From Patescibacteria group bacterium (GTDB lineage Bacteria > Patescibacteriota > Minisyncoccia > Phycocordibacterales > Zambryskibacteraceae), in NCBI GenBank assembly GCA_038058745.1, contig JBBUAI010000014.1:1-49901 (forward strand): a DNA stretch of 49,901 bases. The letters are read 5' to 3'. A program made the position numbers and the translations under genes. Below are positions 13,185 through 49,901 of the stretch, in pieces. Position 1 is the first letter of the stretch, and every line of letters starts with the position of its first letter. Under the pieces are notes generated by a model. The model did no database searches, was not told the DNA's origin, and saw only the letters and a list, made by a program, of their open reading frames with translations.

Positions 13185-13835
13185 CTATTTCGTAAGGATT
13201 ATACCGTATCCGGTTGTCCAGGCGGTAAGCTGGGGTGCGACAGTTTTCTTGTCGAGCCACATCAAAAATTTTATGAGAGGGAACTGGACAGGCCGCCATG
13301 ATACGCCCTTGGCGAGGAAAAGATGCTGAAGCATTAAGCCGGCTACCGCAAATATTGTTCCCTGTCTTTCAATTTCCATTATTTTAAACCCGGCATCTCC
13401 GGAGGCATTCTTCCAGAACGCTTCCGTATATCGCCCATAGTCGTGCGGGTCTGCATGGATGCCGACCATAAAGGGTACTGTAATCAGGGCAATACCCCCC
13501 GGTTTTAACAGGCGATGTGCCTCTTTCAAGGCCTTCTTCGGCTCAGGCACATGTTCCAAGAGTTCCCCCATAATGACGATATCGCAGTAACTGTCCGGGA
13601 TGGGGATTTGCGCGGCATCGCTCACTATATCAGGATTCGTGGTGCGGTCGATATTAACGTATTTTACTTCCGCGCCGTAAATGCCAATGTCGAAAAGTCC
13701 TCGTTTGTTATCCTTTTTCCCGCCGATGTCAACAATTTTTTTTCCGGGACTAAAAAGCTTTTTATGGGAAAAGAAAAATCCGTCCACGAAATGGCGGCGC
13801 ACGGAGACGGAAAGAGATGTGCGTTCCTTACTCAT
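13185..13835 (-). CDS. Class I SAM-dependent methyltransferase
   Basis: Motif I IVDIGG, then IVIMGELLEHV, then LKPGGIALITVP (Methyltransf_11-like). Confidence 0.85.
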   Translation of the reverse strand: MSKERTSLSVSVRRHFVDGFFFSHKKLFSPGKKIVDIGGKKDNKRGLFDIGIYGAEVKYVNIDRTTNPDIVSDAAQIPIPDSYCDIVIMGELLEHVPEPKKALKEAHRLLKPGGIALITVPFMVGIHADPHDYGRYTEAFWKNASGDAGFKIMEIERQGTIFAVAGLMLQHLFLAKGVSWRPVQFPLIKFLMWLDKKTVAPQLTAWTTGYGIILTK

Positions 13836-15664: not shown

Positions 15665-17256
15665 AAAAGTCCAAATCACAATATAAAGTCTGCATTTTGG
15701 CGGCCGGAGCGGGAGCGGCCATGGACCATCTATCCGAGCACGTTAATCGCGCCGTCTTGCCGGTCAACAATAAGGCCGTCATTTCATATATCGTTGAAAA
15801 ATTTCCGAAAGGAACGGAGTTTGTGGTGGCGGTCGGGCACAAGAAAGAGACGGTTATAGATTATCTGAAACTCGCCCACCCGGAAAGGAAATTTACCTTT
15901 GTCGTTATCAAAAAATTTACCGGCCCGGGCACCGGTCCTGGCGCCTCCCTTCTCACTTGCCGGAAATATTTGCAAAGCCCATTTGTATTCTCGACGGCCG
16001 ACACTATCGTAACTGAAGACATACCGGCACCGGAGGTCAACTGGATGGGTATCGCGCCGGTGCGCGATACGGAGCATTATTGCACGATTAAAATCAGGAA
16101 TAATTCCATCTACCAGCTCGACGACAAGGTTAAGACCGACAATCACTTCGCCTTCATTGGTCTCGCCGGTGTGAAGGACCACAAGGATTTCTTCAGGGCG
16201 CTGGAATTGGACAAAAAAGCCATTGCCGGCGAAATCCAGGTTTCGAACGGCTTCAAGGCCCTAATCGAGAAGCACTTGGTGCCAGTGGGCTTTACCTGGT
16301 TTGATACCGGACACTTGGAGAATTACATCGAGACGAACAAAAATTTCTCCGGCGAAGCTAAGTTCGACTTCAGCAAATCGAACGAATTCCTCTATTTCGT
16401 CAATGGCCGCGTCATAAAATTTTTCGCTGACAAGAGCATTACCGACAAACGCCACGTCCGGGCTAAGAACGGGCTTCGAGGGCTGACGCCGAAAATAGAA
16501 GCCAGGCGCGGGCATTTCTATTCATATAAGAGAGTGGAAGGGCATACGCTCTACAGCATCTTGAATGCGAGTCTGGCGGGAGAATTTCTGCTTTGGGCCA
16601 AGAAGCATCTTTGGAAGAAGCTGAAGCTCTCTAAGAAGCAGCAAAAGGCATTCCAAGAAGCGGTGGTCAAATTCTACAAGCATAAGACGGAAGAAAGGGT
16701 GGCCGCTTTCGAAAAGAAAAAGAATCAGAAAGAAGCGGTGCTTATCAACGGCGCCAAAGTGCCTTCGACCAAAGAATTGTTAAAGAAGATAGATTGGGAA
16801 CATCTGACTCACGGCGAACCCGTAAACTTCCACGGCGATTTGCAATTCGACAATATTCTGGTCAACCCGAAAGCCAGGAATGCCAAGGGTAAATTCATCC
16901 TGCTTGACTGGCGGCACGAATTCGGTGGCATGATCGAGGCGGGCGACCTTTATTACGATTTGGCCAAGCTCTACGGCGGCATGGTTATTTCTTACCCTCT
17001 CATCAAGGAAGGGATGTTCTCGGCCAATACGGATGGCAAGGAAGCGTTCTATCATTACTTCGTGAAGAACGACCTCATAGAAGCGCGGGAGCATTATGAA
17101 GAATTTCTGCTCGCGAACGGCTATGATTTGAAAAAAGTCAAGATTCTGACCGCCATCATTTTTCTCAACATGGCGCCTCTCCACAATGCTCCGTTCGACG
17201 AAATGCTCTCGCACATGGGCCGCAAGATGCTTCATAAAACGCTAGAGATGCGATAA
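15661..17256 (+). CDS. Bifunctional sugar-phosphate nucleotidyltransferase / APH-type (choline or sugar) kinase fusion
   Basis: The N-terminal roughly 230 aa is NTP-transferase-like (KVCILAAGAGAAM...LPVNNK). The C-terminus carries the kinase Brenner motif HGDLQFDNILV and LLDWRHEFG, as in LicA/AmgK-type kinases. Confidence 0.75.
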   Translation: MKKSKSQYKVCILAAGAGAAMDHLSEHVNRAVLPVNNKAVISYIVEKFPKGTEFVVAVGHKKETVIDYLKLAHPERKFTFVVIKKFTGPGTGPGASLLTCRKYLQSPFVFSTADTIVTEDIPAPEVNWMGIAPVRDTEHYCTIKIRNNSIYQLDDKVKTDNHFAFIGLAGVKDHKDFFRALELDKKAIAGEIQVSNGFKALIEKHLVPVGFTWFDTGHLENYIETNKNFSGEAKFDFSKSNEFLYFVNGRVIKFFADKSITDKRHVRAKNGLRGLTPKIEARRGHFYSYKRVEGHTLYSILNASLAGEFLLWAKKHLWKKLKLSKKQQKAFQEAVVKFYKHKTEERVAAFEKKKNQKEAVLINGAKVPSTKELLKKIDWEHLTHGEPVNFHGDLQFDNILVNPKARNAKGKFILLDWRHEFGGMIEAGDLYYDLAKLYGGMVISYPLIKEGMFSANTDGKEAFYHYFVKNDLIEAREHYEEFLLANGYDLKKVKILTAIIFLNMAPLHNAPFDEMLSHMGRKMLHKTLEMR

Positions 17257-17262
17257 GGTAGA

Positions 17263-18279
17263 ATGATGCAAAATAAAGGGACAGAAAATCCCCAACTGGC
17301 CTTGGGACCGATGAGTTCGGAAATCATCGAGGCGGTGTTCTATTATTCAAATTTCTTCCGTAAGCCTTTGATGCTTATCGCTTCCAAGAACCAGATAGAC
17401 CATGCCGGCGGCTACGTCAACGGCTGGACCACTGACGAGTATATGTATTTCATCAAAAATATGAGGAAGCAGTATCCCTTGGCCTCGGTTAAGATTTGCC
17501 GAGACCATTGCGGTCCCGGTTTCAACGGCAGTCATGATATCAAAGACGTTTATCGCACCATTAGAACGGATATTAGGGCGGGCTTTGACCTCATGCATAT
17601 AGACTTCTGCATGTATCAGGGCTCTCAAAGCGAAAGATTGGAAGCAGCCAGGAAGGCGGTCGAATATTGTCTTGAGCTAAATCCTGATATAGAGCTCGAG
17701 ATCGGCACGGACGAGAATCAGGGCACTAATTACAGTTTGCCGAACATTAGGGAATGGGAAAGAGAAATAGACTTTTTCCAAAAGTTTTGCAAACCAACAT
17801 TTTATGTAATTCAGACTGGAAGTTTGGTTATGGAAATAAACCAGGTGGGCAATTTCAATAAATCCTTTGTCGAAAAAGTCTCCAAGCTCATACGTGCTAA
17901 AGGGCTTAAGCTTAAAGAGCATAATGCTGATTATTTGTCTAAAGAAGAAATTCGCGACAGAATAGGTTTAGTGGATGCCATGAACGTTGCGCCGCAATTA
18001 GGAGTTATCCAAACCCTGACGGTGCTTAGCCGAGCCCGGATATATGGCGTGAAGATTGATGATTTCCTGGAAGAATCCTACGAAGGCGGCAAGTGGAAGA
18101 AATGGATGAAGAACAACGGCCCGGAAAATAAAATGCTCTGCGCCATTATCGCCGGGCATTACCACTTCGCCTCGCCGGCTTATCAAGCGATAATCCGAGA
18201 GCTTGAGGAGAGGGAGGACATCAAAGAGACGATTATCAACTCTATTTTAAGTGTGATTAAGCACTATGTCGGGAAATAA
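17263..18279 (+). CDS. GatZ/KbaZ-family TIM-barrel protein (tagatose-bisphosphate aldolase accessory / ketose-6-P epimerase family)
   Basis: LMLIASKNQIDHAGGYVNGWTTDEY and ICRDHCGPGF parallel the GatZ/AgaZ segments [23 protein letters not shown] and LGGDHLGP. Confidence 0.55.
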   Translation: MMQNKGTENPQLALGPMSSEIIEAVFYYSNFFRKPLMLIASKNQIDHAGGYVNGWTTDEYMYFIKNMRKQYPLASVKICRDHCGPGFNGSHDIKDVYRTIRTDIRAGFDLMHIDFCMYQGSQSERLEAARKAVEYCLELNPDIELEIGTDENQGTNYSLPNIREWEREIDFFQKFCKPTFYVIQTGSLVMEINQVGNFNKSFVEKVSKLIRAKGLKLKEHNADYLSKEEIRDRIGLVDAMNVAPQLGVIQTLTVLSRARIYGVKIDDFLEESYEGGKWKKWMKNNGPENKMLCAIIAGHYHFASPAYQAIIRELEEREDIKETIINSILSVIKHYVGK

Positions 18280-18572
18280 AACAATTCTTATAACCGGTTC
18301 AAGTCGTGGTATCGGCGCTGCTACCGCGTGTCTGGCTAAGAAATACGGAGCAAATAAATAACGCAGGGATAAGCATTTCTAAGCCATTTTTAGAATTAAC
18401 TCAGAAAGATTGGACCGAAAGAATATACAATCAAATCAAGGAGGTACCTCTCGACCGAGCCGCCAAGCTGGAAGAAATCGCGGAAATCATCTTATTTGCA
18501 GCAAGCGACAAGGCAAGCTATATTAACGGCCAGACAATTATCGCCGATGGCGGTTACAGCATAAGGAGCTGA
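18266..18572 (+). pseudogene. Decayed short-chain dehydrogenase/reductase (SDR) remnant
   Basis: ATG 18266 gives MSGNKTILITGSSRGIGAATACLAKKYGANK*, which has the Rossmann TGxxxGIG motif and stops at 18359-18361. Another frame continues INNAGISI...TQKDW...VPLDRAAKLEEIAEIILFAASDKASYINGQTIIADGGY. The central part with the catalytic Ser/Tyr/Lys is missing. Confidence 0.7.
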
Positions 18573-19033: not shown

Positions 19034-20737
19034 ATGCAATACAAGGTCTTATTAACCACTTCCGGAACGGGTTCGCGGCTAGGGGAATTGACCAAGAATA
19101 CTAATAAGGCGCTCGTGCCCGTCAACGGGCGGCCTACTATCGAATATGTTCTGGATTTGTATCCGAAGGATATTACGTTCGTAGTCACTCTCGGTTATCT
19201 GGGCCAGAGCGTGAAGGATTATCTGCTCAAAAATTACCAAGACAGAAATTTCGAATTTGCCTGGGTAGATAAATATGAAGGCCCTGGTTCAAGCGTTGGC
19301 TACTCAATGCTCCAGGCCAAAGAATATCTTCAGTGTCCGTTTATTTTCCACGCTTGCGATACGATTCTTACTGAAAAGATACCGGCACCGGAAACCAATT
19401 GGATAGGCGGCTATGTCGAGGATTGGCCGAAGAGCGAGATGAAAACGGACAGCTACAATACCTGTTCTGTCGAAAACGGCTATGTAGTGAGATTGAATGA
19501 AAGGGGCACTCCCGGCTTTGACGCCATTTACCTCGGCTTTGACGGCATCTTTGACCATAAACTTTATTGGGAAATATTAGAATCTCTCTATCAAGCTGAC
19601 CCGATGAGTTCCAAACTTCATCCCATTCAGGTTTTAAATGAAATGCTTAGAAGGGGAGTGAAATTCAAATTTACCCCGTATTCCGTTTGGCTTGATACCG
19701 GCAACCTTCCAGCACTCGCGAAAACCGAAGAGTTTCTAAAGACTTCAATGGACAAAAAAATCGGGTTAGTGATACAGGGGCCACTCATATCCATTGGCCG
19801 GACGGGGGGTAAGATGCGGCAGTCGGTGGAACAATTGCAGAAGGAAGGAGGGGTAATTCATTACGACTGCCGGGAGAATATCAATAAGATAATAAAAGAA
19901 TTCGGATATCTTTTTGATGAGATTGTGATTTCCACTTGGGACAATGAAGTGAAAGAGGGGGAAAATTTTCCAGGAGCCAAACTCGTTTCTCAACCCGACC
20001 CGGGCGGTATTAAACAAGCGGGACATTACAAAGACAATAATAAATACCGCCAATTTTTGAGCACTCACCTGGGTCTGGTTGAGCTTGAGAAAGATAACAT
20101 TGATTATGCGGTGAAAACTCGCACTGATATTTATCTTGATTTCGGAAAGTTGCTCGGTTCTTTTTTTAAAAACGATACGAAGAAGATTGGCGCGACTGTT
20201 ATGCATCCAAAAACTTTTTTGCTACATGACCTCTACTTCGTCGCAGAATTAAAAAAGCTGAAGGATTTCTGCGAAGCGATACTTTCATTCGATAGATTCG
20301 AATTTATCCCATCGGTCCATCGTGAAATGGTCTTAAAACATGCTTATGTCGAGTATAGGAATAAAATTGGCGTACCGGACTGGGCGTACTTCCCTGTATA
20401 TCCGCCCACGGGAGTAAATGCCGCAACAAGGAAAATTTTTGATTACATGTTTGAAAATGTTTATTTCTCTCTCCCACCATCTATATTTAAAGAAACATTA
20501 TGGCGCGGCACTTACTTCCCGGAAGACCATGTATCATCGCTTACCAAGGGTAATGTAAGTTCGAGGAAATATAATGTCCCGGCGTTCATTAGCACAGACT
20601 GGCAGCGTTATTTTGCTTTTCGCCAAGAGGTATATGGGAAGAAGATGGTGTTACAGGACAAAATTACCGCAAACCTCGGCAAGTGGGGGTGGGATTTGTG
20701 GAATCTCACTCGCAAGGTGGTCAATATGCTACGATAA
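19034..20737 (+). CDS. NTP-transferase domain fused to a WavE-like polysaccharide-synthesis domain
   Basis: Start moved to ATG 19034 (MQYKVLLTTSGTGSRLG), just past the terminator. The N-terminal domain is paralogous to that of 15661-17256. The C-terminal part (GLVIQGPLIS...ISTWDNE...YAVKTRTDIYLD) resembles the WavE LPS-synthesis family pattern. Confidence 0.65.
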   Translation: MQYKVLLTTSGTGSRLGELTKNTNKALVPVNGRPTIEYVLDLYPKDITFVVTLGYLGQSVKDYLLKNYQDRNFEFAWVDKYEGPGSSVGYSMLQAKEYLQCPFIFHACDTILTEKIPAPETNWIGGYVEDWPKSEMKTDSYNTCSVENGYVVRLNERGTPGFDAIYLGFDGIFDHKLYWEILESLYQADPMSSKLHPIQVLNEMLRRGVKFKFTPYSVWLDTGNLPALAKTEEFLKTSMDKKIGLVIQGPLISIGRTGGKMRQSVEQLQKEGGVIHYDCRENINKIIKEFGYLFDEIVISTWDNEVKEGENFPGAKLVSQPDPGGIKQAGHYKDNNKYRQFLSTHLGLVELEKDNIDYAVKTRTDIYLDFGKLLGSFFKNDTKKIGATVMHPKTFLLHDLYFVAELKKLKDFCEAILSFDRFEFIPSVHREMVLKHAYVEYRNKIGVPDWAYFPVYPPTGVNAATRKIFDYMFENVYFSLPPSIFKETLWRGTYFPEDHVSSLTKGNVSSRKYNVPAFISTDWQRYFAFRQEVYGKKMVLQDKITANLGKWGWDLWNLTRKVVNMLR

Positions 20738-20741
20738 TAGT

Positions 20742-22604
20742 ATGGATAGAAATACCCTTAAGCCGGTCATCTACACAGGCCTCTTTCTTGTGCCATTCAT
20801 CCCGTTTCTTGTCTCGAGTGAATTCTTTTTCCCCTTCATCACCACTAAAGCGTTCGTTTGGCGTATAATCGTCGAAATAATATTTGCCGCATGGGTTCTC
20901 CTCGCGCGAAACCACCCCGAATACCGTCCCAGGAAATCCGTCATCCTTTACGCTCTCGCATCCTTTCTCGCCATTGTCGGTCTCTCTGATTTGTTCGGCG
21001 TCGCGCCGATAAAAAGTTTCTGGTCGAATTACGAGCGCATGGAGGGATTCATTTCCCTCATCCATCTCGGAATGTTTTTCCTGATAATCGGTTCTGTATT
21101 TAAGGAAGCGGACTGGAAGCGCTGGTGGAATACTTCGCTTGCGGCATCGGCTCTGATGATTTTCTACTGTCTCTTCCAGCTTCTGGGCGCGGTTCAAATA
21201 CATCAGGGCGGCGTACGGGTGGACGGCACTCTGGGCAATGCTTCTTATCTTGCCGTCTATATGCTCTTCCATATATTCATCGCCGCCTTCTTCATGCTCC
21301 GCGAGAAAAAAGACACAACGCTTAAATGGATTTACGGTACTCTAATCCTTCTTCAGATGTTCATACTCTATGAGACAGCTACCCGTGGGGCAATTCTCGG
21401 TCTTCTCGGAGGTCTGGCCTTGGTGGCTCTCCTCAATGTAAGAAACAGGGAAAATAGAGTCATGGAGCGCGCCAGTATCGCCGTGCTAGTAGCTCTTATT
21501 GTCGTGGTTAGTTGGTTTTACCTCTCCAGGAATTCAAGTTTCGTGCAAAACTCGCCGGTGCTCGAACGCTTCGCGAATATCTCGACGGAGGAGCTGAAGC
21601 AGGGCGGCCGCTCATTCGTCTGGCCGATGGCTATCAAAGGATTCAAGGAGAGGCCAATCCTGGGCTGGGGCCAGGATAATTTCAATTACGTCTTCGACGA
21701 ACACTATGACCCTAGGATGTATATGCTTGAGCCGTGGTTTGACCGCGCCCACAATATCTTTCTCGACTGGATGGTGGCGTCGGGCATTCTCGGCATCCTG
21801 TCCTATCTGTCTCTTTATATAGCGCTTCTCTACTCTACCTGGAGAAAGGCCGGCTTCTCTTATTCGGAAAAGTCGATTTTATCAGGTCTTCTGGCGGCGT
21901 ACTTCTTCCACAACTTCTTCGTCTTTGACCAGCTGATAAGCTATATCCTCTTCGCGACTCTCCTGTCCTATGTGCATAGCCGGACGGAAGTTTCTCTTGT
22001 GAAGACGGTACCCGCGATAAAAAGCGGCGAGCCGTCTCCGCTCGCGGCGGCATTGGTACTCGGGTCCCTCGCCGTTTCCATGTATTGGATAAACATAAAG
22101 CCGATAATTGCAAACACCAGTCTCATCAATGCTTTGGTTCATGCCCAAGGTTCTCCGGAAGACCAGATTCTCTCCATCGCCGACTTCAAGCGAGCACACG
22201 GGGAGTCCCGCCTAGGACGTCCGGAAGTGGTCGAGCAGGTAGTTACCGCCACCCCTGGTCTTATCAGCGGAACTCTCTCGGTGGAAGAGAAAAACGATTT
22301 TTACAGCTTTGCCAATAATGCCATCGTCGGGCAGGCCGAAGATCTTAGCACGGACGCGCGCTACCAGCTCATCGCCGGAGTCTTTCACACGCAAACCGGT
22401 TCTCTGGACGAAGCGGTAAAGTATTTGACGCGCGCCAAGGAGCTTATTCCAGGTAAACCGCAGGTTTATATTGAACTCGCACGGGTTTATTATGCGAAAG
22501 GAGACAAAAACAAAGCGATTGAAACTCTGCGCTTCGTTTCAGAGATTGTTCCAGAACTTGCTCCGCAGATGGAAGAATATATAAGACAAATTCAAAATAA
22601 TTAA
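20742..22604 (+). CDS. O-antigen-ligase/polymerase-like (Wzy_C) polytopic membrane protein with C-terminal TPR region
   Basis: Start set to MDRNTLKPVIY (20742), 5 nt after the upstream stop. Wzy_C-type motifs YETATRGAILG and GWGQDNF...RAHNIFLDWMVASGILG. The C-terminus is TPR-like (AVKYLTRAKELIPGKPQVYIELARVYYAKGDKNKAIE). Confidence 0.75.
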   Translation: MDRNTLKPVIYTGLFLVPFIPFLVSSEFFFPFITTKAFVWRIIVEIIFAAWVLLARNHPEYRPRKSVILYALASFLAIVGLSDLFGVAPIKSFWSNYERMEGFISLIHLGMFFLIIGSVFKEADWKRWWNTSLAASALMIFYCLFQLLGAVQIHQGGVRVDGTLGNASYLAVYMLFHIFIAAFFMLREKKDTTLKWIYGTLILLQMFILYETATRGAILGLLGGLALVALLNVRNRENRVMERASIAVLVALIVVVSWFYLSRNSSFVQNSPVLERFANISTEELKQGGRSFVWPMAIKGFKERPILGWGQDNFNYVFDEHYDPRMYMLEPWFDRAHNIFLDWMVASGILGILSYLSLYIALLYSTWRKAGFSYSEKSILSGLLAAYFFHNFFVFDQLISYILFATLLSYVHSRTEVSLVKTVPAIKSGEPSPLAAALVLGSLAVSMYWINIKPIIANTSLINALVHAQGSPEDQILSIADFKRAHGESRLGRPEVVEQVVTATPGLISGTLSVEEKNDFYSFANNAIVGQAEDLSTDARYQLIAGVFHTQTGSLDEAVKYLTRAKELIPGKPQVYIELARVYYAKGDKNKAIETLRFVSEIVPELAPQMEEYIRQIQNN

Positions 22605-35654: not shown

Positions 35655-35660
35655 ATAAGA

Positions 35661-36004
35661 GATGCCGGATAGTTGCTGTTGCCCTCCTTAGCTTTAGCTA
35701 AAGCGGGTGATAGAGGAAAGTCCGAACATTCATTGCGAAGTGTCGCGCATGCGCAATTTCGCAAAAGGGTAGCAGGTAACGCCTGCCGGGAGTAATCCTA
35801 GAGGTGCGAACAGAAATGACCCGGTTAAGTCCGGCTGAAACAGCAAAATCCTTACCTGAATGCAAGGCCGTGCTCATTTGTATGTTGTGCTGCAAATGCA
35901 TAACATGCATTTGCAGAGTGCCGCTAGATCCCACTAGTGATAGCGGGACCAGATAAATAACTATTTCCGCCAGTTGGCGGAACAGAATTCGGCTTATAGG
36001 CATC
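35661..36004 (+). ncRNA. rnpB: RNase P RNA, bacterial type A
   Basis: Universal P4 strands GAGGAAAGUCCG (5') and ACAGAAUUCGGCUUAU (3'). GGUAGCAGGUAACGCCUGCCGGG matches E. coli GGUGCCAGGUAACGCCUGGGGG. GUGCGAACAGAAA and GCAAGGCC are also present. P1 pairs GAUGCC with GGCAUC. There is no ORF support on the plus strand. Confidence 0.9.
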
Positions 36005-36005
36005 C

Positions 36006-36038
36006 AAACAAAACACCCTTCGGGGTGTTTTGTTTTTT
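36006..36038 (+). terminator. Rho-independent terminator after rnpB
   Basis: AAACAAAACACCC-ttcg-GGGTGTTTTGTTT is a perfect 13-bp stem with a UUCG loop, followed by TTT. Confidence 0.8.
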
Positions 36039-48152: not shown

Positions 48153-49244
48153 CTATAGGTAAGTCAAGTTGCCGCGAGCTCTGATATTCCCGTTTTCTTC
48201 AATCAGTTCCGGGCGCTTGCTTACGTTCTCGTATGCCGCAATGCCAATCATCACGGCATTATCGGTTGCCAAGAGCTTTTCCGGCAGGCGAAGGGCAAGT
48301 CCCGGGAAATCCCGGATTAAATTGTTCAGTTCATGAATAAGATGAGTATTGGCGGCGACACCGCCCGCAACTATAAGCGTTCTCGCTTCATTCCCGAGAT
48401 TTTCTAACGCCGTTCTCGTCTTCTCTATCAATACTTCCACCGCCGCGTCTTCGAACGCCCGGGCAATATCTTGCTTATATTCTATATCTTCTCTATTATC
48501 TCTTCTGATTTTATAAAGTACGGCAGTCTTTAGCCCCGAGAAAGAGAAATCCAGGTTTCCAGAATTAAGCATTGGTCGAGGAAACTTAAATCCTAAATCC
48601 TTAATCCTAAATCTTGAATCTGCGGCTAGTGCCGAAATTTTAGGCCCGCCAGGATAAGGAAGGCCGAGCAATCTTCCCACCTTATCAAAGGCCTCTCCTA
48701 CGGCGTCGTCCCTCGTCTGTCCGATGATTTCGTAATGCCCGAATTCCCTCATCAAGACAAGTTCCGTATGTCCGCCAGAAACTAACAATGCCAATGCAGG
48801 CATTGTTAGTAAATTCGAATTTCGAATTTCGAATTTCGAAATTGACCCTGTTTTGTACAAAACAGAGTAGATATGTCCTTCCATATGATTGACCGGCACA
48901 ACGGGCTTTCTCCAGCGTCTTCCCAGTTCTTCCGCGAACGTGATGCCTGTCCAGAGAGCCGGCTCGAGCCCCGGGCCGGCGGTGACGGCAATAAAATCCA
49001 CCTGTAGACACTCCGTGTCTACGTTGGCTTGCTTAAGTGTTTGTTCCAGGAGAATCGGAAGATTCTTTTCGTGTTCGCGCTTGGCAAGCGTGGGGTAGAC
49101 GCCGCCGTACTTTTCGTGCAGGGCCGCTTGAGAAAGCAGAGTGTTACCCAGGACTCTTATATCCGGTTTTTCAGCTGGCCCGCTTATCTCCAGAAGCGCT
49201 ACCGCCGTCTCATCACAACTTGTCTCTATGGCTAGAATCTTCAT
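48153..49244 (-). CDS. tsaD: tRNA N6-adenosine threonylcarbamoyltransferase TsaD
   Basis: MKILAIETSCDETAVAL, VNHMEGH, LLVSGGHTEL, DDAVGEAFDKVGRLLGLPYPGGP, DFSFSGLKTA, and ATDNAVMIG are collinear with E. coli TsaD. Confidence 0.95.
   Translation of the reverse strand: MKILAIETSCDETAVALLEISGPAEKPDIRVLGNTLLSQAALHEKYGGVYPTLAKREHEKNLPILLEQTLKQANVDTECLQVDFIAVTAGPGLEPALWTGITFAEELGRRWRKPVVPVNHMEGHIYSVLYKTGSISKFEIRNSNLLTMPALALLVSGGHTELVLMREFGHYEIIGQTRDDAVGEAFDKVGRLLGLPYPGGPKISALAADSRFRIKDLGFKFPRPMLNSGNLDFSFSGLKTAVLYKIRRDNREDIEYKQDIARAFEDAAVEVLIEKTRTALENLGNEARTLIVAGGVAANTHLIHELNNLIRDFPGLALRLPEKLLATDNAVMIGIAAYENVSKRPELIEENGNIRARGNLTYL
48585..48619 (-). repeat. 7-bp-period array inside tsaD (plus strand CTTAAAT CCTAAAT CCTTAAT CCTAAAT CTTGAAT)
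   Basis: Five imperfect heptamers. They are translated in frame as ...DSRFRIKDLGFKF... in a variable TsaD loop. The sense strand nearly matches the array in front of lepA. Confidence 0.6.
48781..48865 (-). repeat. Composite of a 12-bp-stem hairpin, a TTCGAAT x4 tandem repeat and an 18-bp perfect palindrome inside tsaD
   Basis: ACTAACAATGCC(48781-92)-aatgca-GGCATTGTTAGT(48799-810). TTCGAAT x3 plus TTCGAAA (48814-48841). CTGTTTTGTACAAAACAG (48848-65). All are in frame and encode VLYKTGSISKFEIRNSNLLTMPALALLV. Confidence 0.7.
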
Positions 49245-49314
49245 AAGTTATTGGCGCATCTCTACGTTAATGCTCGAACCTACTTTATCAAAAATTCCTG
49301 ACTCTAACTAACTC

Positions 49315-49860
49315 GCACGCCCTGCGGGCGTGCTCGTGCGCCTCGCCCCATCGCTTTCATTCTTTTTAGAGTTGGCGGGGGTTAGATTTTTTCAGAGGTA
49401 TGAGCGATGGGGCTCGGCTTGGAATACAGGGTGCATTGTGCTCGGTCTGGTGTTTTGTGGAGCGTCCGTGCCTAAAGCAGATGACACCACTCGGCATCCG
49501 CCTCGGGCTGTTTCCGCTAGGGCTACGAGCGCCTAAGTGCCTAGGTGTGGGTAGGTTGGCTTGCGGCTCAAATACCCGGTAAATGAGCCGCAAGCCCTAC
49601 CCGTCTCCTTTTGGGGAGAGGAAAGGTTCCTCTCCCCAGCTTCGGTCTCCTCCTCGCAGGGATAGGTTGGAGTTCATAGTGCTATCTAACCCCTATCCTT
49701 TCTTTATTTCAGTTTTGCAGTTTTCCGTGCCTTCGGAGTCCGCCCTCGCACAACCCCTCTCCTTGTTTTCATCACAGAGTGTGTGGTGTCGCTTTCGCTT
49801 TCGAGTTCTCTAACTTCGTTCGGGTCGGCGCTCGTCTTTAGTCACAGAGTAGTGTACCCC
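49315..49860. ncRNA. Candidate large structured non-coding RNA (class and strand unresolved)
   Basis: No ORF longer than 76 aa in roughly 650 nt, and none has a recognisable protein pattern. There are several long perfect or near-perfect hairpins: 49315-49333, 49345-55/49403-13, 49549-49602 and 49613-49637. Confidence 0.3.
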
Positions 49861-49901
49861 TTTTCTTAGACAACTAGTTTCTCTTGATTTGTATTGTATT
49901 T

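Follow-up and report, generated by a model that had tools for sequence, protein, structure and literature searches.

A truncated copy of an uncatalogued, highly structured non-coding element upstream of tsaD in a Patescibacteria genome, and its likely place at the edge of mobile islands

The window analyzed here is an entire contig of 49,901 nt (JBBUAI010000014.1, hereafter C14) from the assembly of a Patescibacteria group bacterium (GCA_038058745.1; 407 kb in 25 contigs, 82% complete), and its end is therefore also the contig end. Close to that end lies tsaD, on the minus strand, and upstream of it is a stretch of about 0.6 kb that an initial annotation, made from the letters of the window, described as hairpin-dense, comparatively GC-rich, and free of credible open reading frames (ORFs). 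The region between 49244 and 49901 does hold only short ORFs, with no translation that matches Pfam. In an nhmmer search of the whole genome, we found that 49261-49848 corresponds to positions 2-609 of an 803-column family profile (469 bits), and this interval almost certainly belongs to an uncatalogued family of large structured non-coding elements in Patescibacteria (Paceibacteria/Parcubacteria). The reading that we favor overall, with a little more confidence than doubt, is that the element would be a large structured RNA encoded on the minus strand and would form the far end of a serine-recombinase island inserted at a tRNA gene.

The same genome has two other copies, one at C11:30093-30901 (minus strand; 83% identical to the window copy, match C11:30330-30774) and one at C6:13301-14072 (plus strand; 78-86% identical, match C6:13495-13888), making three diverged members of the family in the host (C14, C11, and C6). 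Complete copies are ~650-740 nt long and consist of an outer module of ~160 nt (a conserved box and two hairpins) and a core of ~450-500 nt; a long-range helix of 24 bp closes the core and encloses a second one. When the copies are aligned, the homology of the C14 copy to the family ends abruptly at 49848/49849, which is why it covers only part of the profile, and complete copies extend ~110-150 nt past this point. The C14 copy is truncated, and the missing end would be its 5' end if the element is read on the minus strand. The 53 nt that follow the break are unrelated sequence with no match in the host genome or any fetched locus, and the idea that the AT-rich window end marks the start of an intron domain IV ORF fails on this account. 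A 9-nt direct repeat pointed out at the same time (TCACAGAGT) is present, although its frequency is about that of chance and it is peculiar to this copy; its second occurrence falls exactly at the homology break. The features are listed below in plus-strand coordinates, with the parts of the element assigned to the minus strand, which is favored for the reasons given later.

48153-49244, minus: tsaD; its start codon lies 17 nt past the outer end of the element
49261-49848, minus: the element copy (nhmmer, 469 bits)
49261-49420, minus: outer module (conserved box 49272-49290, P1, and P2), which faces tsaD and recurs inverted beside the recombinase in complete islands
49315-49333, minus: P1 hairpin, with an 8-bp GC stem and a 3-nt loop; other copies have a hairpin at the same spot with another stem sequence
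49345-49355, minus: P2 helix, first arm (in plus-strand order), pairing with 49403-49413
49403-49413, minus: P2 helix, second arm, pairing with 49345-49355
49500-49523, minus: LR-A, one strand of the ~24-bp long-range closing helix; its partner is missing here, beyond the break at 49848/49849
49527-49533, minus: LR-B, first arm (GAGCGCC), pairing with 49827-49833
49549-49602, minus: P3 hairpin, a long interrupted stem of variable sequence; other families have a different hairpin instead
49613-49637, minus: purine/pyrimidine hairpin, GGGGAGAGGA (49613-49622) paired with TCCTCTCCCC (49628-49637); the proposed duplex of a triplex
49754-49763, minus: putative third strand (plus letters CCCCTCTCCT), the mirror image of the hairpin's pyrimidine arm, with which it co-varies
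49788-49799, minus: small hairpin AGC-GAAA-GCG, with a GNRA loop on the minus strand, judged from the loop letters across copies
49827-49833, minus: LR-B, second arm (GGCGCTC), of the nested long-range helix
49849-49901, no strand: unrelated AT-rich 53 nt past the break, running to the contig end (32% GC)

The region folds better than shuffled sequence, and all five helices that the initial annotation had listed are in place. Measured against dinucleotide shuffles, the minimum free energy of the truncated window copy has z-scores of -3.4 (plus strand) and -5.4 (minus strand), and that of a complete copy -7.9 and -7.8, respectively. Four of the five helices (49315-49333, 49345-49355/49403-49413, 49549-49602, and 49613-49637) are kept with compensatory changes in other copies; the fifth (49660-49698) falls in a variable stretch and other copies do not have it. 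The GC enrichment is real, if modest (53.6% compared with 47.9% for the window, within the top 7.5% of windows of the same size).

Support for individual helices comes from how their arms change between copies. The helices of the outer module (P1 and P2) were established by inspection of copies, and the P2 arms co-vary, for example CCCCATCGCT/AGCGATGGGG in one case and CCCCTTTCCGCT/AGCGGAAAGGGG in another. In C11 and C6, the partner of LR-A lies 290-390 nt away and is its reverse complement, exactly or nearly so, with compensatory changes at several pairs, and LR-B shows such changes at three of five pairs. The P3 stem changes from GCTTGCGGCTCA/TGAGCCGCAAGC to GCGAACGGCTCA/TGAGCCGTTCGC, with further variants, and in the purine/pyrimidine hairpin 99% of cells are paired while 5 of the 11 pairs vary on both sides.

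The signal is also evident for the structure as a whole. A conservative structure, obtained with RNAalifold from a MAFFT alignment of 33 diverse cores, has 36 pairs, 19 with compensatory double changes. For a 93-pair structure, 88.9% of cells are in standard pairs (82.6 ± 0.3% in shuffles and 37-47% in slid controls), 42 pairs vary on both sides (25.3 ± 2.5 and 12-22), and the covariation score is 0.196, compared with 0.100 in shuffles (none of 500 reached the observed value) and 0.04-0.075 in slid controls. Homologues thus do carry compensatory substitutions, and this, together with the lack of a matching Rfam family, bears out the suggestion that the region is a candidate for a new kind of large structured RNA.

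One part of the core shows a pattern of a different type. The putative third strand lies ~115 nt from the purine/pyrimidine hairpin and is not the reverse complement of anything nearby. Nevertheless, 49613-49622, 49628-49637, and 49754-49763 match in parallel register at 10 of 10 positions in the window copy, and variants are found in which the three strands change jointly (GGGGGAAGGA / TCCTTCCCCC / CCCCCTTCCT). The mirror relation was tested on 104 distinct haplotypes from 164 copies, with 5000 permutations of the partners; the parallel-register match was 885 of 1040, compared with 822 ± 6.9 after permutation, and none of the 5000 permutations reached the observed value. The best antiparallel match for the third strand was 690. 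An ordinary alternative helix involving the third strand was considered and rejected, because an asymmetric variant (GGGGGAGAAA / TTTCTCCCCC / CCCCCTCTTT) keeps the mirror relation and not complementarity. As this variant cannot make such a helix, the simplest reading suggested by the three-strand mirror covariation is a triple helix of ~10 steps.

The element does not encode protein. Across the core of ~170 homologues, indel lengths do not prefer multiples of three (1479 are 1 modulo 3, 247 are 2, and 172 are 0), which excludes coding, and the stop-free runs of ~116 amino acids on the plus strand arise because its A content is low. Searches of Rfam 15 gave no match at E ≤ 10 for 49200-49901 and none at E ≤ 1 for a complete copy. 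At gathering thresholds the element in the window was unmatched, and in eight loci with complete copies only the flanking tRNAs were recovered. The element is in no RNA catalogue and belongs to no Rfam family, and a literature search found no description of a large Patescibacteria RNA matching it, nor of islands such as those described below.

The family is widely distributed. BLAST gave matches in 10 of 41 genomes of close relatives and in 46 of 401 genomes of the order (38 of 223 genera), frequently at contig ends. A 25-nt degenerate signature (CCTCGGRC-N1-2-TTWCCGCTAKGGCTAC, found at 49501-49526 in the window copy) occurs in at least 119 species-representative genomes and at least 119 metagenome contigs. 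The genome labels are nearly all Patescibacteria lineages (Nomura-, Zambryski-, Kaiser-, Vogel-, Taylor-, and Yonathbacteria, Paceibacterota, and Minisyncoccia). A few matches are labeled Thermodesulfobacteriota, Ignavibacteriaceae, Omnitrophota, Synergistaceae, or Gammaproteobacteria and are on short contigs (loci L089, L100, L120, L127, L135, and L155); these are probably mis-binned Patescibacteria contigs and not true spread. The element was not matched in viral contigs of IMG/VR, plasmids of PLSDB, or phages of INPHARED.

The genomic setting is clearest for the C6 copy. Its outer 158 nt (13295-13451) recur in inverted orientation ~6 kb away (19740-19583) with 98.7% identity, compared with ~80% for outer modules of different islands. 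Here, the recombinase is of the large serine type (Resolvase, Recombinase, and Zn_ribbon_recom domains) and abuts a tRNA-Ile. We surveyed 22 loci with 10-20 kb of flanking sequence, and 13 of them have a complete element with an inverted outer module 5-9 kb away; in 7 of these 13, a recombinase and a tRNA lie just past the inverted module, and in all seven the tRNA is co-directional with the minus-sense strand of the element. At the inner end of the element, the adjacent gene reads toward it (that is, co-directionally with the minus sense) in at least 12 of 14 cases, although cargo is variable, and a small winged-helix gene is the inner neighbor of 9 of 39 copies. The proteins that flank the C6 and C11 copies include winged helix-turn-helix, TrmB-like, MGMT-like, and TraG-like proteins and a serine recombinase. 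The outer module was found alone in four loci (L015, L017, L020, and L021).

Most likely, then, the element is the distal end-piece of islands that are inserted at tRNA 3' ends by a large serine recombinase. The island would run from the tRNA through the recombinase, the inverted outer module, 5-9 kb of cargo read toward the element, and the element itself to the gene that formerly followed the tRNA. The box at 49272-49290 was considered as a leftover tRNA 3' end (an att core) and discarded, as no tRNA of the host genome ends in this way and the box is the same whichever tRNA is used.

Some additional repeats and pieces were seen in these islands. In C6, a perfect 112-bp inverted repeat (C6:19738-19849 and 21474-21585; L057 6739-6850 and 8475-8586) brackets the recombinase, includes its last 37 codons, and is contiguous with the 3' end of tRNA-Ile(GAT); the recombinase itself reads as two ORFs (133 and 392 amino acids). 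The C6 cargo also has 163-bp direct repeats (C6:17425-17587 and 19039-19201, 98.8% identical), with a weaker third copy at 15970-16028. Just upstream of the recombinase, and in the same direction, there can be a piece of ~50-100 nt that resembles the inner tail of the element (profile positions ~630-730; L057 6911-7018, L073 3154-3246, L064 942-987, and L075 13118-13158), which suggests a shared leader or hairpin module. Between the C11 element and the gene for an MGMT-like DNA-binding protein there are ~300-400 nt without a credible ORF (C11:31042-31359; L002 2213-2530) and with no Rfam match at E ≤ 1.

At the window copy, the insertion site can be proposed by comparison with relatives. In 19 of 26 relatives of the same genus, a tRNA cluster (Ser-CGA, Glu-TTC, and often Val-GAC) lies within ~1.3 kb upstream of tsaD, and in about half of those a co-directional tRNA ends no more than ~12 nt from the tsaD start. 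None of these three tRNAs is present in the host assembly. Given that the relatives' tRNA directly precedes tsaD, the most economical interpretation is an island insertion between that tRNA (Ser-CGA or Glu-TTC, unassembled here) and tsaD, in which case the window would hold the distal end of that island alone, with the remainder beyond the contig end. A 1.5-kb contig carries an isolated piece of another serine-recombinase N-terminal domain (C16:342-497, 58% identical to that of C6), which may belong to the unassembled tsaD island. In ~10 of the 26 relatives, tsaD is no more than ~1.5 kb from a contig end (loci L318, L325, L327, L331, L333, L334, L336, and L343), and the tRNA cluster preceding tsaD seems to be an insertion hot spot where assemblies of the genus recurrently break. 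Recognizing the element explains why contigs of this genus frequently break upstream of tsaD, and flags an unassembled island there.

The strand analysis began with the family oriented as the window plus strand. In five well-aligned core helices, A.C oppositions (which are G.U on the minus strand) outnumber G.T by 84 to 22 among 105 genome copies and by 51 to 15 among 65 independent metagenome copies; for pairs predicted on both strands, the counts are 104 and 56. The RNAalifold energy of 130 cores is lower on the minus strand (-197.7 vs. -183.7 on the plus strand). Unpaired columns, in plus letters, are 33.5% T, 30.4% C, 18.8% A, and 17.2% G, which amounts to 64% purine on the minus strand, and purine-rich unpaired positions are typical of structured RNAs. 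In plus-strand letters, the loop of the small hairpin is TTTC (85 copies) or TTCC (54) in 139 of ~147 copies; the minus-strand equivalents, GAAA and GGAA, are both GNRA loops. From these statistics, the minus strand, which is also the direction of tsaD, is probably the functional one. The element very probably works as a folded single strand and not as a set of duplex DNA sites, and we lean fairly firmly toward that strand being RNA rather than single-stranded DNA.

There are several points that weigh against a minus-strand RNA at an island end. Both the strand and the preference for RNA over single-stranded DNA rest on sequence statistics, and the z-scores of the complete copy fail to separate the strands. 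One predicted helix (CUCC/GGAG) has more G.U on the plus strand (14 vs. 2). A scan found no convincing sigma-70-type promoter on either strand, and promoter and terminator scans together gave nothing beyond chance; if read in the minus sense, the element also follows the last cargo gene so closely that a promoter could hardly fit between them. A minus-strand triplex would be of the purine motif (G.G-C / A.A-U), for which no natural RNA counterpart is known, although poly(G.G-C) triplexes form in vitro (reviewed in PMC7583470). On the plus strand it would be of the familiar pyrimidine motif, and the triplex chemistry therefore opposes the wobble statistics. In 3 of the 13 islands, all in the host genus, cargo beside the proximal module reads the opposite way, and some copies lack a recombinase within the 10-20 kb of flanking contig. 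Finally, the C14 copy has lost one strand of the closing helix and may for that reason be non-functional or mis-assembled. What this copy contributes is evidence on the tsaD insertion site and an independent strand analysis, and nothing on function.

Alternatively, the family could be an RNA of the plus strand, transcribed inward from the outer module (which would serve as promoter and leader) and ending at a GC-rich hairpin shared with the convergent last cargo gene. Its triplex would be of the pyrimidine motif (C+.G-C / U.A-U), so that the mirror covariation would suit the sole triplex type known in natural RNAs (PMC7583470). The proximal module is directly upstream of co-directional cargo genes in 10 of 13 islands, the plus strand has UUCG/UACG-type loops and a weak promoter-like site upstream of the C11 copy, and one conserved U.G pair favors it, as does the CUCC/GGAG helix. 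We nevertheless consider this rather unlikely, given that wobbles favor the minus strand by ~3.5 to 1 in two independent sets, that plus-strand loops are pyrimidine-rich (unusual for a structured RNA) and the best-conserved tetraloop would be UUUC or UUCC, and that protonated cytosines would be needed in 7 of the 10 triples. Covarying helices with tolerated G.T pairs would also be expected of a folded DNA strand, for example a single-strand origin, or a site of priming or transfer that serves when the excised island is replicated or imported as a single strand. Purine-motif triplexes (G.G-C, A.A-T) are well documented in DNA, GCGAAAGC-type mini-hairpins are very stable DNA hairpins, the element is carried on mobile islands, and a TraG/VirD4-like coupling protein is encoded near the C11 copy. 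Set against this, the cargo of the islands examined showed neither a Rep nor a relaxase gene (the Pfam scan covered host-genome proteins only), known single-strand origins are far smaller, the plasmid, phage, and viral-contig collections gave no match, and purine-rich loops are typical of RNA; single-stranded DNA is thus improbable.

We judge a duplex-DNA architecture very improbable. It would consist of repeats or binding sites for the recombinase or for small winged-helix proteins, with the arms kept alike by gene conversion; this would fit the near-identity of the inverted outer modules within an island (98.7% vs. ~80% between islands) and the winged-helix gene that abuts 9 of 39 copies, and arms bound by a single protein would also co-change. 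However, some ten nested or local helices of differing sequence and strongly conserved unpaired stretches are not expected of protein-binding repeats, nor are strand-asymmetric wobbles and a three-strand covariation that is mirrored and not inverted, and serine-recombinase sites are ~50 bp. The initial annotation had offered, as speculative readings, domains I-III of a group II intron, an omega/HEARO-like guide RNA, or a retron non-coding RNA. The element is multi-copy, ORF-free, highly structured, and over 600 nt, as such RNAs may be, and a GTGCG does occur at 49336; other copies do not keep this GTGCG, and the Rfam searches above returned no Intron_gpII, D1-D4, HEARO, or retron model. A perfect 12-bp stem with a 13-nt loop at 49549-49602 was inspected as a candidate for domain V and dismissed, as it has neither a bulge nor a GNRA loop; no other hairpin resembling domain V was seen in the window copy, and complete copies, which stop within ~740 nt at the stop codon of the neighboring gene, have no domain V or VI. 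No reverse transcriptase gene lies beside the two complete copies of the host genome, and no IscB, IsrB, or TnpB ORF lies beside any copy examined. In addition, the element is three times larger than a retron msr/msd RNA (~150-250 nt). We give these three readings virtually no weight.

If the element is indeed a minus-sense RNA, it would be made behind the last cargo gene and fold into a compact body braced by the triplex, and the GC hairpins of the outer module would end the transcript. The outer module would also supply outward transcription, from its distal copy into the displaced gene (here tsaD) and from its proximal copy into the recombinase, with the box (minus strand TTGATAAAGTAGGTTCGAGC here) helping to drive the next gene. 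A tsaD that abuts a tRNA has no room for a promoter, and transcription would therefore have to come from the insertion, either reading through the outer module or starting from it, which agrees with transcription in the minus sense. That the outer module combines a terminator with an outward promoter is a tentative proposal, held at less than even confidence. The more ambitious proposal, that this is a new class of large minus-strand bacterial RNA, braced by a purine-motif triplex and essential to the islands (e.g., for excision, transfer, or maintenance) and not a passive end-piece, we regard as unlikely.

Among known systems, the closest parallels are ROOL (RF03087) and GOLLD (RF01998), RNAs of ~500-800 nt with dense conserved structure and no ORF that are carried by mobile DNA, often near tRNA genes. 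The element is alike in size class, ornateness, lack of an ORF, and location on mobile DNA near tRNAs. It differs in having no covariance-model match, Patescibacteria as hosts, and a mirror-covarying three-strand motif, and in being fixed at the distal end of serine-recombinase islands and not in prophages (phage, viral, and plasmid collections being unmatched). OLE (RF01071) and raiA are likewise large, highly conserved structured bacterial RNAs with long-range helices, but each is encoded by a single-copy chromosomal gene and has fixed protein partners in Bacillota, whereas the element is multi-copy, island-borne, and without a model match. Group II introns are also large, structured, multi-copy, and associated with mobile elements, and they hold a short catalytic triplex. 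Unlike them, the element has no GUGYG, domain V, or domain VI, no intron-encoded protein, and no Rfam match, and it is located between genes at an island boundary and not inside a gene. The triplexes of MALAT1/MEN-beta, the PAN ENE, and other natural RNAs similarly have a hairpin duplex clamped by a third strand of the same molecule over ~10 triples (PMC7583470, PMC7102945). However, they are of the U.A-U-rich pyrimidine motif and are located at RNA 3' ends, whereas the triplex proposed for the element is G-rich, internal, of the purine motif on the favored strand, and proposed from covariation. As for the islands, the literature searched does not describe tRNA-targeting serine-recombinase islands with a structured end of ~650 nt whose outer module is duplicated in inverted form beside the recombinase, and this is absence of evidence only. 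Tycheposons are reportedly tRNA-targeting islands with small cargo at tRNA 3' ends and the recombinase at the tRNA-proximal end.

Few large structured bacterial RNAs are known, and RNase P, group I and II introns, OLE, ROOL, and GOLLD each taught new RNA biology. The family described here numbers in the hundreds among ultra-small bacteria that are still poorly understood. It is better conserved in sequence than the adjoining genes, and it holds a fixed place at the edge of islands that move variable cargo between genomes. The mirror covariation, which is directly testable, could mark a natural triple helix that is both long and unusual in type.

Two other observations were made in the host genome. 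The window also has an RNase P RNA at 35657-36011, which scores 103.6 bits (the Rfam gathering threshold is 100). This suggests a divergent or reduced form, as is common in ultra-small bacteria. On another contig, a 535-bp direct repeat with 99.4% identity is present in two copies 4.6 kb apart (C12:13439-13973 and 18023-18557).

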